From assembly GCA_000146465.1 (NCBI GenBank), contig CP001949.1: a DNA stretch of 64,000 bases. One strand, 5' to 3'. Positions within the stretch are counted from its first letter, which is position 1. Every line of letters begins with the position of its first letter. The translations under genes were made by a program, and so were the position numbers. Below are positions 22,318 through 58,472 of the stretch, piece after piece. Below the pieces are notes generated by a model that ran no database searches, had not been told where the DNA came from, and saw only the letters and a list, made by a program, of their open reading frames with translations.

Positions 22318-22839
22318 ATGAACTTGGCGTCGCAGTGGGTTCTTTGGCAGAACAACAACGACGAGTCGAATGCCAAGAGCTGGGGAGACGACCTCATGGT
22401 TGTTGGGGAGGTGTCGACGATACCGGAGTTCCTGTATCTCTGTGACGAGATATCGAATGTCGGGGTTGGAAAGCTGTGCACAATGAATCTGTTTAAGAAA
22501 GGAATCAAGCCGATGTGGGAGGATGAGGGAAACATAGAAGGAGGAAGAATTATAATGGATGTTCCTGTGGTGGGCAAGGACAGTATTGATGAGCTGTGGA
22601 AAAGAACCATGGCGTTCTGTGTCTCGAATACCGTCGATAACATATGCGGGTGTGTACTCAGTGAAAAACAGTCGTTTTACAAGGTGGCAATCTGGTTTGG
22701 GAAAGATTATAACCAGGATTCGATTAAGGACATGTGGCAAGAAGCCCTTGGAGGGGGAAAGCTATCCATCTACTCTTTCTTGCACAAGAAGTCGTTGGAC
22801 AGCAACAAAGGAAAAAAAAAGTGGGGAGGAAGAAGGTAG
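22318..22839 (+). CDS. Translation initiation factor eIF4E (cap-binding)
   Basis: Conserved Trp pattern and KPMWED; ends at TAG; ATG preceded by GGATCCCTGA. Confidence 0.8.
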   Translation: MNLASQWVLWQNNNDESNAKSWGDDLMVVGEVSTIPEFLYLCDEISNVGVGKLCTMNLFKKGIKPMWEDEGNIEGGRIIMDVPVVGKDSIDELWKRTMAFCVSNTVDNICGCVLSEKQSFYKVAIWFGKDYNQDSIKDMWQEALGGGKLSIYSFLHKKSLDSNKGKKKWGGRR

Positions 22840-25742: not shown

Positions 25743-26117
25743 TCACAGCTCTCGAATGTTCTTCGACTTGAATGGCGATCGAGGAAATGAGGAAAATAAA
25801 AGATCCATCTCGGTTTCATCCTCTTGGGATGCTCTGTTCATTTCTTGTGCCGGAGGCTTTGTCTTCTCTGTGATCTCTCTCAGCGCTGTGTATCTCTTCC
25901 TCTGCTTTACCTTGGTAGGTGTAAACTCCTTGATGTGTGGATTGTAGTTCTCCTTCTCAGGTAGGTTGTCAAACCCTGCACCATCTGGTCTTTCACATCT
26001 CATGTTAGGGATTCCTCCTATTGTCCAATAAGTCCATTTTGGAGGGAAGATTCCAAGACCTTGCAAAATAACAGCATTCAAAGCCCTAAGAAGAGTACAG
26101 AATTTATTGTTACACAT
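25743..26117 (-). CDS. 124-aa ORF immediately downstream of the multi-exon membrane gene; either a 4th exon (via the non-consensus 28-nt intron GTAACA...CTTCTTAG at 26086..26113) or a separate small gene
   Basis: Frame can be reached from exon 3 only through a non-consensus intron; it has its own ATG at 26117. Confidence 0.25.
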   Translation of the reverse strand: MCNNKFCTLLRALNAVILQGLGIFPPKWTYWTIGGIPNMRCERPDGAGFDNLPEKENYNPHIKEFTPTKVKQRKRYTALREITEKTKPPAQEMNRASQEDETEMDLLFSSFPRSPFKSKNIREL

Positions 26118-27087
26118 CCGGAATGCCCTTGTCCCTCTTTACCTTCAGTACATTCCGCTCTTTCCCTGCGGGGTAAAACAACTCCTTTAGCCCAGATCCG
26201 AAGTACCTGTAGTCCAAGACCGAGTAATACAGAAAAATCAGGTTTATAACTGCCTCGAAGTTATTCCTTATGATGAAGAGCCTAAAATTAAAAATGCTCA
26301 CTTACCTCCTCAGATGCCAATCCAGAGCGTCACTGTTCCTATGTCTCGAAACCTGGGATGTACAGTACGAAAGATTCAAGGCTGTTGCCATGATTAGAGA
26401 CATCCTTTGGCCCTCATTTTCTTCATTAGGCCTCATGAACATTAAGAAAAAGGTGATAACCTCGAGAATATGGTCAAGCACCATCAAGAAAGCCTCTAAA
26501 GAGTTTACAGTGTAGTATTTGATCCCCTCGATCTGAAGATATATCCCCTGGATGGCTGCTAGGATCATTAGAAACTTCGATGCATCGTACCGGGCCCTTG
26601 CTTTGTATGCAGCTTAAAATTATATGTGTCACTTACCTTTCAGCTTGCTGCTAACACCCCCCTGCTTAAAATAGTACCATTCAAACATGTCTCCATATTC
26701 CTTGCATACGAAGTACATCCTAATAAACTCTCCAACGCATAGTCCTAAATACAAAAGGGAAAAAGCCACAACTCCCAGGTTGTGATTGGTAAACTTGAAA
26801 ACGCTTTCCACAATCACAGATGCCTCCAGAGAAGCTATGAGAATGATAACCCAGTATGCCTTGCACTGCTCAAGGTTTTTTCTCGACATTGCATTTTCAA
26901 GATAGATAAACATGTAGACGTTTGTAACACATATGGACAGACACATCGATCGGATTATGACCATTTGCTTACCGATAATGTTTTTCCGGTAAAATCCAAT
27001 TCCGATGACTAATATCCTCAAAAGCAAGTACATAAACGAAACCTTCCTCCCTTTGTTCAACAGTTCGTCCTTCCCCAACAAGTCCAT
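26110..27087 (-). CDS. Multi-pass membrane protein encoded by at least 3 exons (27087..26637, 26612..26306, 26281..26110), tentatively TLC/TRAM-LAG1-like; a possible 4th exon is 25743..26085
   Basis: Three consecutive minus-strand track ORFs in different frames join exactly when two 24-nt introns (GTAAGTGACACATATAATTTTAAG, GTAAGTGAGCATTTTTAATTTTAG) are removed; phases match and the continuous frame is hydrophobic; the ATG at 27087 is preceded by GACCCATTGA. Confidence 0.55.
26282..26305 (-). other. Spliceosomal intron, 24 nt, GTAAGTGA...TAATTTTAG
   Basis: Removal joins exon frames (phase 2) without a stop. Confidence 0.65.
26613..26636 (-). other. Spliceosomal intron, 24 nt, GTAAGTGA...AATTTTAAG
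   Basis: Removal joins exon frames (phase 1) without a stop. Confidence 0.65.
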
Positions 27088-27266: not shown

Positions 27267-28151
27267 CTAGAACCCGTTCCTTGTGAAGACAATTTGGCCA
27301 TATGCTTTCTTCTGCACAGGTATAATGTCCCCTCTTGAGCTCATCAAAAGAATGGAATAGAATGTCCTTGCTCTTGTCCTTCTGCTTGTGCCAGCATACT
27401 CGTCGAAGTCTCCATTGCTCAGCAGGATGCTTGCCATGTCTTCGCTGGAAGTGCTGTTTGAAAAGTCCTCTCTACTCGAATGCCTAGACCAATTACGTGC
27501 TTTTTCTACAGAGTCAAAGGAAGACATCCCGGCATACAACATCCCAGTCCCCTGGATTGGAGGTCTTATCTTCTTAACTTCCCTGGTGATAAAGGCTTCT
27601 TCTTCAAACACCCGGGTTTCAGCCCTCTCTTCATGCTTGGATGTTCTTGAAGCTCCTGCTTTATTGATATTCAGTACTGTTGTGCTGTCCACTACATTCT
27701 AAAGACGCTTTCTGGATATATGTTCCGGCCCGTCCACAACTCCAAATGTTTCGCTGTAGCTAAACATTATACTATCCATACAATCGACCCCATCCAGTTC
27801 GGAGCTACAGACACTTGCCACATATCCTGTTTCAATCGAAAGCATGTTCTTCTTTTTTCTTTCCACCGTCCTTCTCCTCTTTTTTCTTCTATCTAGTATC
27901 CCAGCTAGCGATCTAATTTCAAGCAGCTGAATCCTAACTTTGGCTTTATAGATTCTTATCAGCATTTGAAGAAATACCGAGGCTCCTCTTAACGCATACA
28001 CCGGAAAGATGTCCACCACAGCCTTCACAACCCCTGGAATCCAGATCTTTTCCACAGCCTTTCTTCCAATTCGGACTTTCCTCCCCCTCTTCCCAAGTAT
28101 TCGGAGAAAGGTCAATGCTTCTTGATTCCTAAGGAGATTTTGGAAAGCCAT
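27267..28151 (-). pseudogene. Rad21/Scc1-type kleisin (cohesin subunit) reading frame interrupted by one in-frame TAG (plus strand 27699..27701)
   Basis: N-terminal kleisin motif (EKIW...VYALRGASVFLQMLIRIYKAKVRIQLL) and C-terminal winged-helix motif (TRARTFYSILLMSSRGDIIPVQKKAYGQIV) lie in the same frame on either side of the TAG; the track shows two ORFs, the second starting at a GTG. Confidence 0.55.
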
Positions 28152-30276: not shown

Positions 30277-30750
30277 TCATCCCCCACCACTATTTGTTGG
30301 CCACTTGTTGGGACTGTTGTTTGAAACATTCTTCACATGAGGAAATAGTTGCTCCACGTCAATCTCGTGCCCACTAGAGAAGTATTTCTCAAGAGCCCTG
30401 TGGTCCTGCATCTTCACCTTGAAGTTTATTGCCGGGTCTTTCGCAAAGTCCGGAACAACAAAGTCTGGGTCCAAGATGGCATCATTTTCGTCTACTTGCG
30501 GTATCTTTGTCTTTGGCCTGTAAATATGCTGTGGGACCCTTCCTGTCGATCTGAGGAGTTGATAATCAATGGCTTGTTTGTAGAGATTCCCTCCGTTGAA
30601 CCTCTTGCCTGTCTCTGTCTCTTTTCCTCTCACTCCAAGAGAATCCAAATCTGCTTGGTGCAGAGGCATCATCTCAGGCTTGCTTATCTCCTTCTCTAGT
30701 AAGCTTTCCTGCCCTTTCTTGCCATACTCAGATTCATTTGCCTTCTCCAT
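30277..30750 (-). CDS. Hypothetical protein; may be the 3' part of a frameshifted gene with 30783..31385
   Basis: The track start at 30786 is a TTG; first ATG at 30750; abuts the previous ORF in the +1 frame. Confidence 0.25.
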   Translation of the reverse strand: MEKANESEYGKKGQESLLEKEISKPEMMPLHQADLDSLGVRGKETETGKRFNGGNLYKQAIDYQLLRSTGRVPQHIYRPKTKIPQVDENDAILDPDFVVPDFAKDPAINFKVKMQDHRALEKYFSSGHEIDVEQLFPHVKNVSNNSPNKWPTNSGGG

Positions 30751-30782
30751 ACATCTTTTCTTCAGCTGTTGCAAGGCTGCAT

Positions 30783-31385
30783 TCAATTTGGAATTTGCAT
30801 TAAGGTTCCTGATGCCCTTTGCTGCAGTTCAAGTAGTCTCCTTCCAATCCCATTTTCCAATTCTGCATCATTGCATTGTGCTTCCCCCATCTCTCTTTTC
30901 TTCAATAAGCTGGGAAAATCCCCGATTACAGAAGGCTTCTTGAGTCTTGTTCCCTTGTAGATCTCTCTAGAATCCATGTCTATTATCCGAGGACTTTCTC
31001 TCATGGAAATCTCCTTGTAGCCACCCTTGCATCCTTGGCTTACTTTCTTACAAGAAACCGAAGGATGTCCATTCATTCCATTCCTTTCACTCTCCTCAGA
31101 GGTCCTTTTGCCCAGGCCTCCATCCTTGCTCTTTATGACTGGAATGTGCCCTGGAATCAGGCTTTCCTGATCAAATGCACTTCCATCAAAGTCTCCATCA
31201 TACAAAAATTCCTCATTCTCCTTGTCCCTCTCATAACCATCTCTTCCCTTTCCCCCATTCGATATATTCTTCAAATCCTTCATCTCGTATCCACTCTCCA
31301 CATTCATTTTCTCACACATCACACGGTCCTTCACACCTGCAATTGCATTTTTCCATTCCTCAAGAAATTCCTTCAGAAACTCCAT
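30783..31385 (-). CDS. Hypothetical 200-aa protein (low complexity, Gly/Asp/Glu-rich)
   Basis: ATG at 31385; ends 31 bp downstream of the preceding gene's stop. Confidence 0.25.
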   Translation of the reverse strand: MEFLKEFLEEWKNAIAGVKDRVMCEKMNVESGYEMKDLKNISNGGKGRDGYERDKENEEFLYDGDFDGSAFDQESLIPGHIPVIKSKDGGLGKRTSEESERNGMNGHPSVSCKKVSQGCKGGYKEISMRESPRIIDMDSREIYKGTRLKKPSVIGDFPSLLKKREMGEAQCNDAELENGIGRRLLELQQRASGTLMQIPN

Positions 31386-31419
31386 AAGGGATTAAAAACC
31401 CTTGGTTACATACACACAC

Positions 31420-35911: not shown

Positions 35912-36876
35912 ATGGAGAAGAATCAGGCCGAGCCAGAAAAGAACATAAGTTACACAAAACTTGCATTTTTCTTTTTCGTAATAAGAACAGTAGTAATAGG
36001 TCTGGCCTTACTATCGGGACCATACTTTGCACTAGATGACGAAACAACAACATTCAAGATGTTTATAATTTTCTTGGACATAACAAACATATTACAGTTT
36101 ATATTTCAATGGGACATAATTCAGCGTAAGATTCTATTTCAATATCTTCTATATATTCCTGTCCTTGCTTACTCTCTGACTCTTACAATCACGTTAATAG
36201 TTGATGCACACAATACTAACAGTTGTAACTTCAAAGTAGAAGGTAAAATTAAGAAATTAGCTATTGGATATATCTATACATATATGGGAATTCTTCTTGG
36301 GGAAGTTGCTCTCCTTCCAATCATATACAGAAGACTCAAGAGTGACTTTATGTGGGCAAACTTCAAAAAGCTAGGAGCTAACACAGCTATTAATGGTAAG
36401 TGGAGATAAGTAATTTTAGATGCCTTCGGGAGGAGAGAACAGTTTAGTGCAATAAGAAGATTTATGTTGATTTTTCTGTGTGGAGAAGTTGCAAGTTTCA
36501 ATATAAGCATAAGAGATAACAAAGATGTCTTCTTTTTTGTAGCAGGGACACAGATATTTGTGATTTTCCTTTCTTTTATATTTTTCAACGAAGAATATGT
36601 ACATCAGAGAAGGTTTCTTCTGGGATTTTCCGGACTGTGTACATTAGGAGGAATAGCATACACTGTGATTTATATTGTTATGGCTAGTAGGAGTAGCGAA
36701 ATAAGAAAGTAAGTGAAGATGTTAATTTTAGAGGAGTTATTTCCGAAATTGTATTCTATACAATTACAATGCTTATTTTCTTTGTTGGAGCCTTTAGGGA
36801 TTATCAGACATTTGGGAAGGGACTAAAAGATTATTATAGTGGAAGTCTTGGAATAAGAAAAAAACTCACACCTTAG
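35912..36876 (+). CDS. Multi-pass membrane protein encoded by 3 exons (35912..36395, 36420..36708, 36732..36876), 305 aa
   Basis: Two track ORFs plus an unlisted 3' frame join precisely after removing introns GTAAGTGGAGATAAGTAATTTTAG (24 nt) and GTAAGTGAAGATGTTAATTTTAG (23 nt); total CDS is 918 nt in frame and ends at TAG 36874-36876. Confidence 0.55.
36396..36419 (+). other. Spliceosomal intron, 24 nt
   Basis: GTAAGTGG...TAATTTTAG; phase 1; restores the frame. Confidence 0.65.
36709..36731 (+). other. Spliceosomal intron, 23 nt
   Basis: GTAAGTGA...TAATTTTAG; phase 2; restores the frame. Confidence 0.65.
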
Positions 36877-58196: not shown

Positions 58197-58472
58197 ATGG
58201 AGTTGCGATATAGATTGTAAGTGGAAGCAACTAATTTTAGGGTTTTTGGCAGAAAGGGTGTTCTGATCGAAGACCGAGCTCTGAAGGAGTTTGTGAGCGG
58301 GCTTATCCGGGGCTTTGGGGGCCTTGATTTGCTGAGCAGAGTTAGTGTAAGATGTGATGGAGGAGTGATCAATATCTCGGCGGACAAAGAGGCTTCTAGC
58401 ATTGTGCATGGATCTCTATTTCTCTGCGGAGAGTATAAGTCTGTTGGATGTAGATTTGAGCGAATCGATTAA
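58197..58472 (+). CDS. Small two-exon gene (exons 58197..58216 and 58241..58472), 83 aa, probable ribosomal protein eL38 with a short N-terminal extension
   Basis: A 20-nt first exon (ATGGAGTTGCGATATAGATT) followed by the consensus 24-nt intron GTAAGTGGAAGCAACTAATTTTAG joins in phase to the track ORF, whose apparent start is a GTG inside the intron; VSVRC...ADKEASSIVHGSL parallels eL38 VKFKVRC...DKEKAEKLKQSL. Confidence 0.45.
58217..58240 (+). other. Spliceosomal intron, 24 nt
   Basis: GTAAGTGG...TAATTTTAG. Confidence 0.6.

Follow-up and report, generated by a model that had tools for sequence, protein, structure and literature searches.

A lone in-frame TAG divides the cohesin kleisin gene of Encephalitozoon intestinalis

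Sister chromatids are held together by a ring that the cohesin kleisin closes. Human RAD21 and yeast Scc1 (Mcd1) are cohesin alpha-kleisins with an N-terminal helical domain and a C-terminal winged helix. Both are recognisable in the microsporidian protein, together with a weak match to RAD21 306-338, yet that protein measures only ~300 amino acids (aa) against the 566-631 of RAD21 and Scc1, which is half their length or less. Here we describe the kleisin gene of the microsporidian Encephalitozoon intestinalis, which lies on the minus strand at positions 27267-28151 of a 64,000-nucleotide (64-kb) stretch of chromosome VIII (contig CP001949.1 of assembly GCA_000146465.1), called the window below. 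Unlike RAD21 and Scc1, this gene gives a single bridging polypeptide only by decoding a stop, a lone TAG at codon 151 of its reading frame. To our knowledge, the nuclear genome of E. intestinalis is the smallest known and the most reduced eukaryotic genome.

In microsporidia, SMC1, SMC3, Scc3 and separase have been found, and Scc2/4, Eco1, Pds5 and Wapl were not detected (PMC3195147, PMC4175184). The kleisin has been reported as absent (PMC3195147), as Rad21 plus Rec8, both of which were listed for Encephalitozoon (PMC2488364), or as two microsporidia-specific 'REC8' paralogues (PMC6394115). The last of these reports, Jain et al. 2019, covers the same family in the same organisms and says nothing of the E. 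intestinalis interruption. It recorded two Rad21_Rec8_N proteins in six of ten microsporidia, including E. cuniculi, and one in the other four. A literature search by the identifiers of the locus and its counterparts (Eint_080940, Eint_080930, EHEL_080940 and a guessed E. cuniculi tag, ECU08_0950) returned no papers, and pseudogenes are not discussed in the telomere-to-telomere genome paper.

The interruption can be set beside other kinds of system. Like the TAG, cleavage of Scc1 by separase or by tobacco etch virus (TEV) protease separates the SMC3-binding N domain from the winged-helix part; unlike such cleavage, the E. intestinalis break is genetic, permanent and not regulated by the cell cycle. 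A cleaved kleisin destroys cohesion rather than supporting it, and a permanent break should be lethal in a cell that has neither a second kleisin nor a way past the stop. Programmed readthrough genes (tobamoviruses with UAG-CAA-UUA, and fungal and animal extensions) likewise combine an in-frame stop with a conserved open frame beyond it. In contrast to these genes, the E. intestinalis stop is non-conserved and has neither a leaky context nor a stimulatory structure. The orthologues, E. hellem EHEL_080940, Ordospora colligata M896_090950 and others, have the same length and the same three conserved modules as the E. intestinalis kleisin but are uninterrupted, and the codon-151 stop occurs only in E. 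intestinalis.

Our preferred reading, to which we assign a probability of roughly 0.55, is that the TAG is a very young nonsense allele, present in every isolate examined, that cuts the alpha-kleisin to a 150-aa stub and makes the gene a young unitary pseudogene. Events of this kind are known, as is the gene family, and the E. intestinalis case adds a new instance.

The kleisin frame and its domains

Read on the minus strand, the locus is a single frame of 294 codons. An ATG at 28151 is followed by 150 codons, the TAG at 27699-27701, 143 more codons and a terminal TAG at 27267-27269 (ATG...AAG CGT CTT TAG AAT GTA GTG...TTC TAG). The open reading frames (ORFs) on the two sides, 27699-28151 and 27267-27692, are in frame with each other, and the TAG is their sole separator. 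A chance open frame beyond the TAG is ruled out, because the 143-codon stretch was stop-free in just 3 of 20,000 shuffles and the two alternative frames of the same stretch contain 7 and 9 stops. A first-pass annotation, made from the letters and their ORFs, had described kleisin N- and C-terminal domains lying in one frame and parted by one TAG. Its coordinates, frame, single in-frame stop and codon context are exact against the sequence, and its domain identities are upheld by Pfam, by a PDB profile search and by a structure model. The upstream neighbour is HSF, a heat-shock transcription factor gene. The locus comprises the following features.

27699..28151, minus strand: upstream ORF of 150 codons plus TAG, Eint_080940, the N part of the kleisin (exact match to ADM12026.1 / UTX45815.1; Pfam Rad21_Rec8_N E=0.008)
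27849..28151, minus strand: N-terminal helical domain, residues 1-101, with a long helix at 54-101; predicted SMC3-neck binder (AlphaFold confidence 70-83; Foldseek; profile match to RAD21 31-72)
27699..27701, minus strand: the in-frame TAG, codon 151, in CTT TAG AAT GTA (sequence; gapless against AAA in E. hellem and AGA in a relative from run SRR21633403)
27669..27713, minus strand: basic patch and short conserved motif RKRL*NVVDSTTVLN with the TAG inside (orthologue pattern K/R-R-x-x-D-x-x-T-E-L; weak profile match to human RAD21 KRKRKLIVDSVKELD)
27267..27698, minus strand: in-frame continuation of 143 codons to the natural stop TAG at 27267-27269 (translation; collinear with the C halves of intact orthologues)
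27267..27542, minus strand: Eint_080930, 91 aa from the first in-frame ATG beyond the TAG (GenBank; ATG aligned to Ile in E. hellem)
27279..27395, minus strand: C-terminal winged-helix domain; predicted SMC1-head binder (Pfam Rad21_Rec8; profile match to RAD21 585-623 and yeast Scc1-C; Foldseek)

GenBank cuts this frame into Eint_080940 (150 aa, 'uncharacterized protein') and Eint_080930 (91 aa). The two entries are halves of one kleisin gene, and the public annotation needs correcting.

A search of 1.84 billion representative proteins returned six homologues of 293-314 aa, among them E. hellem EHEL_080940 (299 aa), O. colligata M896_090950 (304 aa) and a Pancytospora philotis protein. Five of the six span the whole query; the Pancytospora one aligns best over the N domain. 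Together with the E. intestinalis protein, these homologues formed the family set used in the domain analysis (n=7). Rad21_Rec8 was matched by all seven members and Rad21_Rec8_N by five of the seven (best E 2.3e-16). For the E. intestinalis protein, the C half alone exceeds the Rad21_Rec8 gathering cut-off (25.0 bits against 22.7, E=1.1e-5), and the N half is sub-threshold for Rad21_Rec8_N (16.8 bits against 23.1, E=0.008). Microsporidian REC8-like proteins have been said to be without the C-terminal Pfam Rad21_Rec8 domain (PMC6394115); contrary to that statement, the family does carry it, in seven members out of seven. A separate, word-indexed protein search gave no match to the joined protein and, with the family alignment as query, two Ordospora proteins only (E <=0.01, and again at <=10). 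This search missed members of the query alignment itself and is hence uninformative on E. cuniculi and E. romaleae orthologues and on a second paralogue.

Run against PDB sequences, the family profile matched human RAD21 with a whole-sequence E of 2.5e-6. Three collinear profile stretches fall on RAD21: the N stretch on 31-72, a weak middle stretch on 306-338 (KRKRKLIVDSVKELD) and the C stretch on 585-623. The middle stretch, with the pattern K/R-R-x-x-D-x-x-T-E-L, scores 4 bits and is non-significant alone. We take RAD21 306-338 to be the start of the SA/Scc3-binding region. The TAG falls in the basic patch just N-terminal to this middle motif.

The AlphaFold model of the protein has a mean predicted local distance difference test score (pLDDT) of 56, with values of 70-83 in both domains. 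Helices at the N terminus, the long one of residues 54-101 among them, lead into a disordered middle, and the C terminus forms a winged helix. In a Foldseek comparison with PDB, the best matches were nearly all kleisins. They included RAD21-N on the SMC3 head, with target-normalised template-modelling (TM) scores of 0.71-0.78 and root-mean-square deviations (rmsd) of 2.3-2.5 A (target TM 0.73-0.78 and rmsd 2.3-2.5 A for 8rok, 8roi and 8rol), as well as the winged helices of RAD21-C, Scc1-C and ScpA-C on SMC heads. The small size of the domains accounts for the weak E-values of these matches. In the C domain, E. intestinalis keeps the family-wide invariant residues (F, L, G, Q, Y, I).

From these results we conclude that the locus encodes a minimal alpha-kleisin of the Rad21/Rec8/Scc1 family. 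The C-terminal winged-helix domain (Rad21_Rec8) is present according to Pfam, profile and fold. The N-terminal Rad21_Rec8_N helical domain is present as well, despite its sub-threshold Pfam score, judging from the family matches, the profile and the modelled fold. One continuous polypeptide joining two SMC heads is encoded by all orthologues and is lacking in E. intestinalis.

Authenticity and origin of the TAG

The 885 nucleotides (nt) of the locus are identical in CP075165.1 (the telomere-to-telomere assembly of ATCC 50506), JBLUPK010000017.1 (ATCC 50603), JBLUPL010000015.1 (ATCC 50651) and the Logan assembly of an independent run, ERR13302946. Three KAL protein accessions at the locus suggest that ATCC 50507 likewise carries the TAG. 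ATCC 50603 and ATCC 50651 were assembled de novo with SPAdes from ~300x Q30 Illumina data, the reference being used only for contig orientation, and the Illumina isolates (ATCC 50603, 50651 and 50507) originate from three US states (PMC12697097). With three isolate assemblies and the assembly of an independent read set agreeing on all 885 nt, an assembly error behind the TAG is very unlikely. The sequencing or assembly error that the first-pass annotation had listed among its three readings is effectively refuted by these four identical contigs, which include telomere-to-telomere and de novo Illumina sequence. The newer assemblies show zero differences among themselves over ~10.5 kb, so the isolates are not fully independent samples. 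E. intestinalis is nearly clonal, and the presence of the TAG in all isolates is thus weaker evidence than it sounds.

A very improbable alternative is that the TAG is not the sole allele. The assemblies might share a reference-guided error, or a heterozygous or polyploid genome with an intact AAG copy might have been collapsed by the assemblers. The near-clonality of the isolates speaks for this possibility, as does the fact that errors exist in the window assembly, which differs from three newer E. intestinalis assemblies by a 1-nt deletion at ~30827 and a 3-nt deletion at ~30200. However, these known errors are indels, not substitutions; ATCC 50603 and ATCC 50651 were assembled de novo at ~300x (PMC12697097); and the long-read telomere-to-telomere assembly and the unrelated run ERR13302946 agree on the TAG. 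Errors exist in the window assembly, but the TAG is not among them.

One public annotation, KAL7347248.1 (289 aa), fuses the two halves by excising 15 nt, gtctttagaatgtag, and thereby models the TAG as part of a short spliced-out intron. The excised segment does start with GT and end with AG. Introns in E. intestinalis, however, are stereotyped, with the form GTAAGTG-N9-TAATTTTAG and a usual length of 24 nt. Chance would give 0.14 matches to this signature in the window; there are five, all of them away from the TAG, which bears out the lack of an intron motif reported at first pass. In addition, the residues flanking the TAG align column for column with the orthologues, and the stop occupies exactly one column with no gap in the alignment. 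We know of no spliceosomal intron as short as 15 nt. The intron explanation, whose probability is next to nil, was rejected because there is neither a signature nor an alignment gap at the TAG; the 15-nt 'intron' of KAL7347248.1 is an annotation patch and is not credible.

Intact single proteins are encoded in E. hellem, the SRR21633403 relative (hereafter L006), O. colligata, O. pajunii, P. philotis and two further species, the O. pajunii orthologue having been added later. Identity to the E. intestinalis kleisin is 38% for E. hellem and 22-28% for the other orthologues. The gene order HSF, kleisin, 152-aa gene is common to E. intestinalis, E. hellem and L006, and the latter two each encode an uninterrupted kleisin of 299 aa. 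In the codon alignment, the single column filled by the TAG, ungapped on both sides, holds AAA (Lys) in E. hellem and AGA (Arg) in L006. Inspection of the orthologous codon in sister species, which had been proposed at first pass, thus found a sense codon, AAA or AGA, at the position of the TAG. Because the TAG aligns without gaps to Lys and Arg codons, the stop is derived and specific to E. intestinalis. It probably arose from AAG (Lys) by a single A-to-T transversion. A disabling lesion facing intact orthologues at the same gene-order position, as expected of a pseudogene, is what we find at this locus.

As to the relative itself, L006 is a contig with 57% GC in the Logan assembly of SRR21633403, from a GC-rich microsporidian with Encephalitozoon gene order around the kleisin locus. 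Its kleisin shares 28-32% identity with the E. intestinalis and E. hellem counterparts, versus 52-84% for the neighbouring genes.

Fate of the interrupted gene

TAG is the terminator of six further long ORFs in the window, eIF4E (22318-22839) among them, as well as of the three-exon gene starting at 35912 and of the kleisin gene itself (27267-27269). The earlier remark that TAG is a normal stop elsewhere in the window, made for eIF4E and the three-exon gene, holds true. We rejected an altered genetic code because TAG ends the six other long ORFs and the kleisin gene itself.

If the gene were still functional through stop-codon readthrough, a near-cognate tRNA would decode the TAG and yield some full 294-aa kleisin, low amounts of which might be enough. 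Yeast cohesion tolerates strongly reduced Scc1 levels. Readthrough would be consistent with the preservation of both halves, with the lack of rate acceleration and of a second lesion, and with the presence of the stop in every isolate examined. Against it, programmed readthrough is usually recognised by a conserved stop, and here the stop is conserved in no orthologue; AAA, AGA or other sense codons stand at its position. Known leaky contexts are stop-CAR-YYA or a C at position +4, and CTT-TAG-AAT-GTA is not among them. Three genuine terminators in the window likewise consist of TAG with A at +4.

Folding of 100-120 nt of RNA around or after the stop was no better than that of shuffled sequences (z-scores -0.62 and -0.32), so neither a leaky context nor a stimulatory downstream structure was found. 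No suppressor tRNA was detected in the window, whose two tRNA genes are Val-AAC and Leu-TAG and are not suppressors, and a literature search yielded nothing relevant on readthrough in Encephalitozoon. We consider readthrough quite improbable, and the programmed form of it suggested at first pass is unsupported, the stop being non-conserved, its context ordinary and no downstream structure standing out.

The gene might instead encode a naturally split kleisin, in which the C piece, whether or not it includes the middle motif, is translated on its own alongside the 150-aa N piece, or in which one piece is regulatory. Each piece is predicted to hold a complete structural domain, the C half is as conserved as in an intact orthologue, both pieces are annotated as genes in GenBank, and microsporidian cohesin is already stripped down (PMC3195147, PMC4175184). 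However, the first in-frame ATG lies 52 codons past the TAG, beyond the middle motif, and aligns to Ile in E. hellem. For these reasons the C piece has no evolved start, and the ATG of Eint_080930 is not a conserved one. Once separase or TEV has severed the kleisin, the cohesin ring opens and DNA is released, so two pieces should not hold sister chromatids together. The preservation of the sequence is equally well explained by the youth of the mutation, and we give a split kleisin little chance. Taking the two routes together, it is unlikely that E. intestinalis still depends on the kleisin gene, either via readthrough of an ordinary-looking TAG or via two separate polypeptides.

Directly past the TAG the sequence reads TAG A ATG TAG, that is, an out-of-frame ATG followed by a TAG (27692-27697, minus strand). 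This minimal 'start-stop' is probably a coincidence.

Under the preferred reading of a young unitary pseudogene, the locus would be the E. intestinalis orthologue of the ~300-aa microsporidian alpha-kleisin, a cohesin subunit whose N domain would bind the SMC3 neck, its middle Scc3 and its C-terminal winged helix the SMC1 head. A codon for a basic residue in the relatives became TAG in E. intestinalis, likely by a change from AAG, and ribosomes most likely terminate at codon 151 as at any TAG. Full-length, ring-closing kleisin would then be absent or present in traces, leaving at most a 150-aa SMC3-binding stub. The loss was probably tolerated, as the literature suggests that microsporidia ancestrally had two Rad21/Rec8 paralogues and that several species keep one. 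Loss of one paralogue has repeated precedent, because four of ten microsporidia keep only one (PMC6394115). A second intact Rad21/Rec8 paralogue, which the first-pass annotation had named as favouring pseudogenisation, is reported for E. cuniculi and for six of ten microsporidia in all (PMC6394115); for E. intestinalis, the search covered the window.

Several results weigh against pseudogenisation. The local search with hidden Markov models found no second kleisin paralogue among the six-frame ORFs of the 64-kb window. With five outgroups, Tajima relative-rate tests comparing E. intestinalis and E. hellem were non-significant in both halves (chi-square <=2.2). Residues conserved in the other orthologues persist in both halves, at a frequency in E. 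intestinalis that matches the intact E. hellem protein (C-half counts of 17/21 vs 17/21 and 9/10 vs 8/10), and the kleisin frame contains no frameshifts or further stops. Relaxed constraint, which a pseudogene would be expected to show, was therefore not seen, since extra lesions, rate acceleration and loss of conserved residues are all lacking. The preserved sequence fits continued function equally well.

The kleisin is the fastest-evolving gene of its neighbourhood, with a nonsynonymous divergence (dN) between E. intestinalis and E. hellem of 0.53 as against 0.09-0.32 for eight neighbouring genes. Fast evolution is a property of the family and not specific to E. intestinalis, because dN from L006 is 0.72 for E. 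hellem and 0.74 for E. intestinalis. The ratio of dN to synonymous divergence (dS) was not used; it is uninformative because dS is saturated, at least ~1.2 for every pair and in some cases not computable.

The intact state of the rest of the gene also bears on the age of the TAG. If the sequence has evolved neutrally since the TAG arose, its age is limited to ~0.02-0.04 substitutions per site or less, because no second nonsense mutation or frameshift has accumulated. This bound amounts to at most a few percent of the distance to E. hellem and is compatible with the zero differences in ~10.5 kb among the newer assemblies. Since the rest of the gene shows no decay, the lesion would have to be very recent if the gene is a pseudogene. 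Recent pseudogenisation, as put forward at first pass, is the best fit of its three readings provided that the weight is placed on 'recent'; the gene shows no other sign of decay.

Neighbouring genes and biological meaning

Next to the kleisin, at 26110-27087 on the minus strand, lies a gene of three exons, whose 24-nt introns are at 26613-26636 and 26282-26305. Its spliced product is a membrane-like protein of 309 aa, and it ends with TAA. Public annotations split it into ORFs of 152 and 88 aa, or join these with other boundaries, and its intron sequences are conserved in E. hellem. We considered these two ORFs as a second stop-interrupted gene and rejected that view, because both belong, as exons, to this ordinary three-exon gene. 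A gene with the same signature lies on the plus strand at 35912-~36830, with introns at 36396-36419 and 36709-36731, a spliced product of ~307 aa and a terminal TAG. By eye it resembles a paralogue of the gene at 26110-27087. Beside the matches in these two three-exon genes, the fifth match to the intron signature lies at 58217-58240 on the plus strand. The signature could be used as a scanner for unannotated introns.

A gene annotated as 369 aa (30277-31389, minus strand) is broken by the 1-nt deletion at ~30827 into ORFs 30783-31385 and 30277-30750. The older assembly is probably wrong here; a real strain difference is less likely.

If E. intestinalis still depended on the interrupted kleisin, the locus would amount to a natural test of whether chromosomes can be segregated with a split or readthrough-dependent kleisin, and a kleisin of two polypeptides would challenge the need for an unbroken kleisin to close the cohesin ring. 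If, as we favour, the TAG is a young nonsense allele, the locus would offer a clear and datable case of gene loss in progress, in the most reduced of eukaryotic genomes, with one of two microsporidian Rad21/Rec8 paralogues caught while being lost. It would then also bear on whether E. intestinalis retains distinct mitotic and meiotic cohesins. Unless this gene is the sole cohesin kleisin, the main value of the finding lies in the corrected annotation and in the snapshot of gene loss that it provides.

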